Positions 59,792 through 62,310 of a stretch of DNA of 64,000 nucleotides are shown in pieces (position 1 is the stretch's first letter; the number at the start of each line of letters is the position of its first letter). The stretch comes from Dictyostelium discoideum (Eukaryota): assembly GCA_000004695.1 (NCBI GenBank), contig CM000150.2:3392001-3456000 (forward strand), given 5' to 3'. Position numbers and translations under genes: made by a program. The notes under the pieces were generated by a model. It had not been told where the DNA came from, ran no database searches, and saw only the letters and a list, made by a program, of their open reading frames with translations.

Positions 59792-62310
59792 CTATTTTTG
59801 TGTGAATGGGTTTGTTTTGAAATTTTTATCAATCCTTTCTCTTTTTTCTACTTGTTGTTTTGAATAAAATATTTCATTTTGTTTTTTTGTATTTTCAATC
59901 TTTTCTCTTTCCATTGCATCAGTTGATATCTCCATTGGTTTAAATTCAATATATTCTTTTTTATTTATAGTTGGCATAGAAATTTGTTGTTGTTGTTGTT
60001 GTTGTTGTTGTTGTTGTTGTTGTTGTTGTTGATTTTGGTGTAGTTGGTTTGGTTGAATTATTTGATCAATTTTTAATAATAGACAAACTATATCAATTGC
60101 AAATCTAAATGTTTGAAATTTACTTCTATAAGTTTCAAATATACCATTGTTGATTGGATTTAAAAAGAAATCATCTTCACCTTTGCTAAATAAATTAATT
60201 CCAATGATTTTGTCAATATCATCTTTAAAATTACAATAAAAGGAATCTAAAATTTTCAAAATTGGTTTATTACTTTGATTACTTAATAATGTTATTGGAA
60301 TAGTTTCAATAGATCTTATTAGAGCTTGATAAACTTCCTTATCGATATATGTTGTAGATGATGATGATGATGATGATGATGATGATGATGATGATGATGA
60401 TGATGATGAATCATTATTTTTTTCATTATTTTCTGATTGATGTTTCGAATTTAATAATAATGATTGAATAATTGAAAATTCTGGTGAACAAGCAGATGGT
60501 AAAATGAATAAATCTTCAAGACAACATTTACCAATACCCATACCAGTTACATAGCTACCAACTCTTTGACGTAAAATATGATTAGAAGAGCCATAAATTT
60601 CAACTGATAATAATGGTGATTTAGTTTTTAAATTACAAAGTTTAACCTTATTATCAGAATTATAAAAAGTTATTTCACCACACTTTCCAACGAAATTTTT
60701 TAAAAATAAATCGTCATTTATTCCATCTCTAATTGTCGAATCAATTGAATTAATTACACTAATACCAAATGATCTTGTTATTATTTTAATATGTTGTTCT
60801 TGAACATTATCAAATATTAAATAATTGGTATTGTTTGATATTAAATTATAAATTAAAGATTTTGAATATTCATCAATTGATTTAAATATTAATATAATAT
60901 TGCTATATTATTATTATTATTATTATTATTATTATTATTATTATTATTATTATTATTATTATTATTATTATTATTATTATTATTATTATTATCATTATTA
61001 ATATTGTGGTTTGAAATTGTTACAACTCTTTCTAAATATTTACATAACTTTATAATTTTATTTTTTAAAATTAATTTTTCATATTGTAATAATTCTGTTC
61101 TTTCTTGTGCAGAGTGAAATATTAATTTTGTTTTATCTTTTTCATTTTCTTTATTATTATTATCAGACTTTGTAATACCTTCTTTTTCAAAATTTGATTT
61201 TAATTTTAATATTTCATTTATAAATATAATATTATTATTATTATTATTATTATTATTATTATTATTATTATTATTATTATTATTATTATTATTATTATTA
61301 TTATTATTATTATTATTATTATTATTATTATTATTATTAATATTGATTTTATTAATTCTATTATTATTGTTGTTATCAATTATAAAACTATTTATATGTA
61401 ATATTGATTCATTGTTTAAATTAATACTAGGATTATTTGATAATATTAATCTTGGATAAATTATGATTTGGTCTTGAAATGAAATTCTATTATTCATTAT
61501 ATCCAATACAGTTAATTGTTTATCATTTCTTTCTATATACAATGATTTTAATGATTCCAAACAAAGTTTACTAATATTTGATACAATTGAATTATTATCA
61601 TTATTAATAATATTATCATCTAATTTTGTATTAATAGTTGAATAGATGGTATTGTATAATAATTTTAAATCAATATCCTTTAATTTTAAATTTAAAATCT
61701 CTTCATTTGTTAATGATATTTCATCATTTTCATATTATATTATTATTGTTTTTATTTTTGACGATTTTAAAATTGGTATTAATGGTATTCTTAATGATTT
61801 TAATGTTGGTTCTATTATTGTTGTAAAACTTTTTTGTAATGAATAAATCAAAGAAATTGGATGAATTCCTTTATCCATTACAATTACACATTCCCTAAAG
61901 AGTGAATAAATTAAGAGTACTAATGTATTTGTTCCATCATGGCAAATTGATTCTAACATTTGGACTGATTTCTTTACAATATTTGAAAAAACATGTTCAA
62001 CTTTTATGCACTATTAAAAATAAATTAATTAACTAACTTTTATTAAACAAATACAAAATATTAAAAATTAAAATTCCACCAAAAAAAAAAAAAAGAAATA
62101 AAATAAAACAAAGATACATACCTTTAATATTTCAGAAGCTTTTTTGGAAAGTTTAATAGTTTGAGTTTCATTACCATAATCACTTATATCATCATTTTTG
62201 GCATTTTCATCATTTACCAACATTTGATATTGTGCATTCAACCCATAACAACTTTTAACAATTTCATATAGACTACCAATCACATTTAAAATCAAATCAT
62301 TTGTATCCAT
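59792..62310 (-). pseudogene. Disrupted ORF chain on the minus strand. Segment 1 is 62122..62310 plus 61735..62010 (intron GTATGT..ttaatAG), ending at an in-frame TAA at 61735..61737. Segment 2 (60889..61734) is in the same frame. Segment 3 (59792..60907) is in a frame shifted by one nucleotide.
   Basis: The 58 codons between the TAA (61735) and the next ATG (61560) are stop-free and protein-like (YENDEISLTNEEILNLKLKDIDLKLLYNTIYSTINTKLDDNIINNDNNSIVSNISKLCL). Segments 2 and 3 overlap at 60889..60907 in different frames (..NNIAILY* versus *YSNIILIFKSIDEYSK..). No canonical GT..AG intron can remove either lesion. I could not assign a family to the protein. Confidence 0.4.

Follow-up and report, generated by a model that had tools for sequence, protein, structure and literature searches.

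The systems closest to the gene described here are CCT/TRiC, with its eight subunits, and the archaeal thermosomes. In Dictyostelium discoideum, the chaperonin-like protein DDB_G0268902 ("BBS12-like") lies outside every CCT family, and its best matches beyond the dictyostelids are archaeal thermosomes (PMC10074162, 2023). A second kind of precedent concerns the reference genome of this organism. The mutation rate of D. discoideum is 2.9e-11 per site per generation (PMC3466296), and in the same work 1,916 candidate departures from the reference, each shared by more than one AX4-derived line, were ascribed to reference errors or to differences in the ancestor (Saxer et al., PMC3466296). Both precedents bear on a chaperonin-like gene in a 64,000-nucleotide stretch of the D. 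discoideum AX4 reference sequence of chromosome 1 (contig CM000150.2, positions 3,392,001 to 3,456,000; hereafter the window). The gene lies on the minus strand at 62310..59792 and, as the reference reads, it is interrupted by an in-frame TAA and by a frameshift. Exact look-ups of proteins from the window identify DDB_G0269722, DDB_G0269726, DDB_G0270926, and DDB_G0269734, which places it on AX4 chromosome 1.

The first-pass annotation of this DNA had offered three explanations for such an interrupted gene: a recent decay, an error of sequencing or assembly beside microsatellites, and, as the least likely of the three, readthrough or frameshifting. Comparison with other assemblies and species favors the second. 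The apparent TAA and frameshift most probably reflect errors in the AX4 reference, in the form of four small indels, and the locus would then hold one intact and functional two-exon gene whose product is 802 amino acids long. Reference error is favored because the indels vanish in sequence of the same lineage, and because their removal restores an open reading frame (ORF) that is under constraint.

Results

The chaperonin-like gene and its two apparent lesions

The features of the gene are given below in window coordinates. Two sequences serve for comparison at the lesions: the de novo assembly GCA_054883475.1 and the short-read contig L011 from run SRR26869266.

62122..62310, minus strand: exon 1 of the chaperonin-like gene, 63 codons (MDTNDL...SEILK), with the ATG at 62310
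62011..62121, minus strand: intron 1, the only intron of the gene, 111 nucleotides, GTATGT..AATAG
59792..62010, minus strand: exon 2, a single coding exon once the four indels are fixed, 738 codons plus the stop, for a total product of 802 amino acids
61733..61760, minus strand: lesion 1, three single bases absent relative to GCA_054883475.1 and L011, with the TAA at 61737..61735
60889..60908, minus strand: lesion 2, a surplus AT at the 3' end of (AAT)28, with a 19-nucleotide overlap of two frames and a stop at 60891..60889
61231..61338, minus strand: (AAT)36 poly-Asn microsatellite in the coding exon, of the same length in GCA_054883475.1 and of varying length in other strains
60907..60990, minus strand: (AAT)28 poly-Asn microsatellite ending at lesion 2, of the same length in GCA_054883475.1 except for the extra AT
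60359..60409, minus strand: (TCA)17 poly-Ser tract in the coding exon, identical in GCA_054883475.1
59984..60031, minus strand: (CAA)16 poly-Gln tract in the coding exon, identical in GCA_054883475.1

Three-frame translation bears out the layout that had been reported from the letters alone. The spliced 5' segment ends at the TAA at 61735..61737, and the same frame then stays open for 58 codons to a TTG at 61560 and for 281 codons to the TAA at 60891..60889. Between 60907 and the stop at 59794..59792, another frame is open for 371 codons. It shares 19 nucleotides (60907..60889) with the first frame, immediately after (AAT)28, which reads as (ATT)n on the plus strand. The first-pass annotation had likewise placed the overlap next to this tract.

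With a local composition of 0.47 A and 0.33 T, the probability of a stop is 0.103 per random codon. The chance that 58 codons remain open is then 0.0018, which is close to the value of about 0.003 proposed earlier, and the corresponding chances are ∼5e-14 for 281 codons and ∼3e-18 for 371 codons. The two off-frames of the same segments contain 25-110 stops. Because open stretches of this length are so improbable by chance and the off-frames are rich in stops, the segments are coding frames.

Both lesions are absent from sequence of the same lineage

Syntenic loci were taken from other assemblies by means of the neighboring genes. In GCA_054883475.1 (loci L005, L010, and L012), the 2519-nucleotide gene shows 0 substitutions relative to the window, and the (AAT)36, (AAT)28, (TCA)17, and (CAA)16 tracts are equal in length. 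From these two properties, and not from strain labels, we infer that the two sequences belong to the same lineage. Only five differences separate them over the gene, namely one T in the poly-T run of the intron and the four coding indels. The gene of GCA_054883475.1 is a single ORF of 802 codons, which reads LIPILKSSKNKNNNNNNIENDEISLTNEEIL and NHNINND(N)nSNIILIFKSIDEYSKSL at the two sites.

The short-read contig L011 (1056 nucleotides) is the same as the window except for a T-run in the promoter and the three bases of lesion 1. Its ORF spans the TAA site and extends over 215 codons. This contig is not a copy of GCA_054883475.1, because its intron T-run agrees with the window instead. Exon 1 is identical in both sources (L005 and L011). 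Lesion 1 is thus missing from two sources, GCA_054883475.1 and the SRR26869266 contig, and lesion 2 is missing from GCA_054883475.1. When the window ORFs 59792-60541 and 61735-61959 were looked up as exact sequences, neither gave a record, and for the latter this fits, as weak evidence, the absence of a TAA-terminated ORF in the independent contigs. The reconstructed 749-amino-acid protein of L003, from another D. discoideum assembly, likewise had no exact entry.

The nature of the four indels can be read directly from these comparisons. At lesion 1, the window is one A short in the A6 run at 61760 and lacks a further A at 61739 as well as a T at 61733, such that A6 becomes A5, AA becomes A, and TT becomes T, all within 28 nucleotides. 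A short tract rich in AAT and A is thereby shifted, and the window translates as KIKTIII*Y at this site versus KNKNNNNNNI in the intact sequence. The TAA at 61737..61735 arises because loss of an A from the A6 run shifts the frame, and the two later losses of one nucleotide restore it. An in-frame TAA is present, as had been noted; however, it is not a point nonsense change and marks instead the end of an out-of-frame patch of ∼24 nucleotides that is bounded by compensating single-nucleotide indels. At lesion 2, the window reads AATAAT[AT]AGCAAT versus AATAATAGCAAT in GCA_054883475.1, an excess of 2 nucleotides at ∼60908. The more distant D. discoideum assembly GCA_054859355.1 (L004) carries AATAATAGTAAT at this site, also in frame. 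All four indels are small and reside in homopolymer or microsatellite contexts. When the four edits are applied to the window, the result is a coding sequence of 2409 nucleotides and 802 amino acids with one terminal stop.

The best explanation for this pattern is that three single bases were dropped from short runs at 61760..61733 and that the 84-nucleotide (AAT)28 tract gained a spurious AT at its end, near 60908. Three single-base drops within 28 nucleotides that sum to -3 are the signature of base calling rather than a plausible series of mutations. If this explanation is true, then the cause would be base-calling or assembly error in the low-complexity DNA of a Sanger-era reference, not mutation in the sequenced clone, and AX4 itself would be predicted to read TCAAAAAATAAAAACAATAATAATAATAATATTGAAAATG in window 61725..61765 and AATAATAGCAATATT in 60895..60915.

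Orthologs are intact and the gene is constrained over its whole length

Comparison of the orthologous loci in other strains and species, which the first-pass annotation had proposed, proved decisive. The gene is intact in all of them. Two other D. discoideum assemblies that are ∼3% diverged encode intact products of 749 and 782 codons (GCA_054859355.1, loci L003 and L004, and GCA_054859385.1, locus L006). Intact single-frame orthologs with the same one-intron structure are present in Dictyostelium citrinum (867 amino acids), Dictyostelium firmibasis (742 amino acids), and Dictyostelium dimigraforme (869 amino acids). Full-length orthologs are also found in Dictyostelium purpureum (714 amino acids, 55% identity) and in Polysphondylium violaceum (702 amino acids, 39% identity). 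Synteny of the SPX, chaperonin, and desaturase genes is conserved in the D. discoideum strains and sister species. The ortholog loci outlined in their own coordinates are as follows.

4001-6227 of L001: ortholog locus
3756-6063 of L002: ortholog locus (P. violaceum)
2413-5121 of L007: ortholog locus
7313-9731 of L008: ortholog locus
2131-4926 of L009: ortholog locus

The D. purpureum protein is colinear with the window over both lesions in tblastn alignments. Conserved residues flank the TAA (LRIPLIP before, EILxLKL after) as well as the frameshift (CKYLERVV before, IILIFKSIDEYSKSL after). The gene of this species has one intron at the same place as intron 1 of the window, and its residues 56-714 are encoded in one exon. 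Exon 1 and the position of the intron are the same across all Dictyostelium orthologs examined, and the orthologous intron measures 82-190 nucleotides in D. purpureum, D. citrinum, D. firmibasis, D. dimigraforme, and the other D. discoideum strains. The P. violaceum gene is without the Dictyostelium intron after SEILK and has three introns, after amino acids 274, 595, and 683. It had been considered earlier that the locus might comprise three separate genes or conceal an intron. The Dictyostelium orthologs instead show one gene with one long exon over both sites, and in none of them are the lesion sites interrupted by an intron.

Both lesion sites correspond to poly-Asn tracts that are hypervariable between strains and species. 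At site 1, GCA_054859355.1, GCA_054859385.1, and the sister species have an in-frame poly-Asn tract, with 6-7 Asn residues in D. discoideum strains, ∼38 in D. dimigraforme, and ∼85 in D. citrinum. At site 2, the tract is 80 nucleotides shorter in GCA_054859355.1 than in AX4, and all orthologs read N(n)-(S/Y)-N-I-I-L-I-F-K-S-I-D-E-Y in one frame.

The ratio of nonsynonymous to synonymous substitution rates (dN/dS) was estimated by the Nei-Gojobori method over 644 repeat-free codons. Between the AX4-type sequence and the two other D. discoideum strains, the ratio is 0.107 and 0.099, and relative to sister species it is 0.12-0.18. Values within D. discoideum span 0.10-0.21. The segments before the TAA, between the lesions, and after the frameshift yield similarly low values when taken separately (mostly 0.07-0.21). 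As judged from these ratios, the gene is under purifying selection over its whole length, with the AX4 lineage included.

The gene product is a divergent CCT-like chaperonin

The stitched product matches Pfam family PF00118 (Cpn60_TCP1) with 107.9 bits versus a gathering cut-off of 34.3. Profile positions 3-103 are found in the piece before the TAA and positions 253-487 in the piece after the frameshift. Matches to the PDB are weak: the best single-sequence match has an E-value of 1e-8 and the best profile match, to CCT-gamma, reaches 2.8e-17. Other profile matches include an ancestral group II reconstruction (1e-15) and thermosomes (∼1e-14), and they reveal no subunit-specific affinity. The weak matches therefore suggest a divergent paralog that is none of the eight CCT subunits. 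The product aligns colinearly with CCT-gamma, -epsilon, -delta, and -zeta and with the archaeal thermosomes in its apical region and in both equatorial parts, N-terminal and C-terminal. Long poly-Asn, poly-Ser, and poly-Gln insertions set it apart from these systems. By these sequence comparisons, we class the gene as a divergent group II (CCT-like) chaperonin that belongs to none of the eight CCT subunit orthogroups.

In D. discoideum and its close orthologs, the motifs of the nucleotide site are degenerate, with (H/Y)DGTNT in place of GDGTTS and LPSACSPE in place of VPGGGAxE. Competence as an ATPase is doubtful because the canonical nucleotide-binding motifs are not matched. A conserved C-terminal tail of ∼60 amino acids (KKEYIEFKP…TKKQNEIFYSK…EKR…NPF) extends beyond the chaperonin fold. 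An AlphaFold model built from a two-sequence alignment has a predicted local distance difference test (pLDDT) score of 34.5 and is unusable.

An exhaustive profile search of 1.84e9 cluster representatives returned only seven below 1e-10, and the top matches with sequence are dictyostelid or resemble dictyostelids. The family members inspected are dictyostelid orthologs and one more distant relative that keeps GDGT. The paralog is restricted to dictyostelids and a few relatives. The published description of DDB_G0268902 (PMC10074162) fits the behavior of the window protein. The window gene may be DDB_G0268902 or a separate paralog of it.

Neighboring genes and differences in the surrounding sequence

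The chaperonin-like gene lies between two genes on the opposite strand.

58462..59240, plus strand: SPX-domain protein DDB_G0269734, 213 amino acids, three exons, reconstructed exactly
63193..64000, plus strand: sphingolipid delta-4 desaturase (protein EAL72219.1), 361 amino acids, cut by the end of the window

The window and GCA_054883475.1 encode identical SPX and desaturase proteins, unlike the chaperonin gene with its four indels. No difference falls inside the SPX or desaturase gene spans in the 6.8-kb overlap of the two sequences. Outside the chaperonin gene, this overlap contains six differences in the length of long homopolymers and two intergenic substitutions. A further overlap of 12.8 kb shows differences in homopolymer length and clustered single-base differences in noncoding low-complexity DNA, with 12 substitutions, and here a tract of ∼190 nucleotides of (ATT)n is equal in length in both.

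Several of these differences have features of their own. The two substitutions near the gene are at window 59638 (C/A) and 59669 (T/A), in its AT-rich 3' flank. They adjoin a long A-run of differing length, and they could be errors or real differences between sub-lineages. Long homopolymers are consistently shorter in GCA_054883475.1 than in the AX4 reference. Clustered single-base differences occur at window 2896, 3704, 3708, 3749, 3798, and 9971, with further ones at 3588-3596, 4822, 4838, 6544, and 7132. Many of them read TTG[G] in the window versus TTG[T] in GCA_054883475.1, and all except that at 2896 lie outside called gene spans. These clustered differences look like systematic error in either the window or GCA_054883475.1.

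In D. cf. discoideum, the desaturase neighbor (P0025, ACTFIY_000588) is annotated with 1635 amino acids versus 361 elsewhere. This long desaturase is probably a fused gene model that includes a downstream gene of ∼1,580 amino acids.

A scan of the locus for bacterial promoters and terminators gave nothing above background and is irrelevant to a eukaryotic locus. Literature searches on the new assemblies, the SRA run, and the neighboring DDB_G identifiers yielded nothing useful.

Discussion

Conserved ORFs that continue past a stop and a frame that overlaps its neighbor give the locus a likeness to programmed -1 frameshifting and readthrough, but this likeness is superficial. Under such a scheme, readthrough of the TAA and a programmed -1 frameshift in the 19-nucleotide overlap would yield the full-length protein, and the long, open, conserved frames on either side of each lesion are what could be expected. 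However, no slippery heptamer of the form X XXY YYZ is found in 60930..60880, inspection of the stop context likewise revealed nothing, and TAA is not a favored readthrough stop. Real recoding sites are conserved, whereas the stop and the shift are conserved in 0 of 8 orthologous sequences, the same lineage included. The two-frame architecture at lesion 2 is absent from the orthologous genes (7 of 7 are single-frame), and an in-frame stop at lesion 1, a site of variable-length poly-Asn, appears in no ortholog or same-lineage sequence. We therefore assign recoding a negligible probability, and the readthrough or frameshifting suggested earlier is not upheld. Removal of the TAA and restoration of the frame by unrecognized introns has fared no better and is exceedingly improbable. 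The previous claim that a GT..AG intron could repair neither lesion does not hold literally: exhaustive enumeration of GT/GC..AG pairs compatible with the frame yields 77 at lesion 1 and 178 at lesion 2. Every one of these candidates, however, deletes coding residues conserved in the orthologs, such as LCKYLERVV or SFTTIIEPTLKSLRIPLIP. The sole candidate of realistic size, 61048..60903 at lesion 2 (146 nucleotides, GTTATG..ATATAG), is comparable in length to the introns of the orthologs, but it would remove the conserved LCKYLERVV, and its donor GTTATG has a T at position +3, which is unusual for a spliceosomal donor. At lesion 1, the stretch between the conserved blocks contains a single GT, at 61762, and the AGs with which it pairs are 62 or 64 nucleotides away, neither of which is a multiple of 3. 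Moreover, all Dictyostelium orthologs have an uninterrupted exon across both sites. A unitary pseudogene, meaning a gene recently decayed in D. discoideum as a species, would account for two disabling lesions in the reference, and a word-indexed homology search gave the D. purpureum and P. violaceum orthologs but no D. discoideum protein, although the index is unreliable. This possibility is nevertheless highly improbable, if a trace less so than recoding or introns, because three other D. discoideum assemblies are intact (749, 782, and 802 codons), dN/dS within the species is not near 1, and the 281 and 371 codons (652 in all) contain 0 further stops versus ∼10% expected. Of the earlier explanations, error next to microsatellites has stood, whereas gene decay conflicts with the dN/dS of 0.1-0.2 and with the intact strains.

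A lesion private to the sequenced AX4 clone or sub-lineage deserves more weight, although we still consider it unlikely. All four indels would be genuine, and other stocks would be intact. GCA_054883475.1 and SRR26869266 may come from other stocks, a few substitutions separate the window from GCA_054883475.1, and DNA next to microsatellites is prone to indels. If the indels were genuine, AX4, the standard laboratory reference strain, would have lost a CCT-like chaperonin very recently and naturally, as a knockout of a gene that is conserved, dictyostelid-specific, and probably ATPase-dead, and that purifying selection maintains in other stocks and in wild strains; we hold this outcome to be somewhat more doubtful still. 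A strain lesion requires four independent indels in a 2.4-kb gene with zero substitutions, in an organism whose measured mutation rate is extremely low (PMC3466296). The three single-base losses in 28 nucleotides, frame-neutral at -3, are typical of base under-calling in runs, and in the 6.8-kb overlap the neighboring gene spans carry no difference. Several points also weigh against reference error. The source of both GCA_054883475.1 and SRR26869266 might be a sister laboratory stock, such as AX2 or NC4, instead of AX4, and a single project might have produced the two. With 2 substitutions in 6.8 kb and 12 in 12.8 kb, the window and GCA_054883475.1 may represent different clones. Against lesion 2 stand one same-lineage source (GCA_054883475.1) and the comparative data, and the support as a whole comes from other assemblies and a contig. 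Even so, the locus resembles reference-genome indel errors that mimic pseudogenes elsewhere, in that here too the indels are small, lie in a low-complexity context, and do not recur when the same lineage is sequenced independently. The apparent lesions are almost certainly an ordinary artefact of the reference genome and not a real biological feature.

Reference error means that a conserved and constrained gene is broken in the reference, and the gene may consequently be missing, split, or labeled as a pseudogene in the proteome. The corrected gene model of 802 amino acids would be of value for curation of the D. discoideum genome. For other AT-rich genomes of the Sanger era, candidates for recoding that consist of a stop or a frameshift beside a microsatellite should first be checked against independent assemblies.

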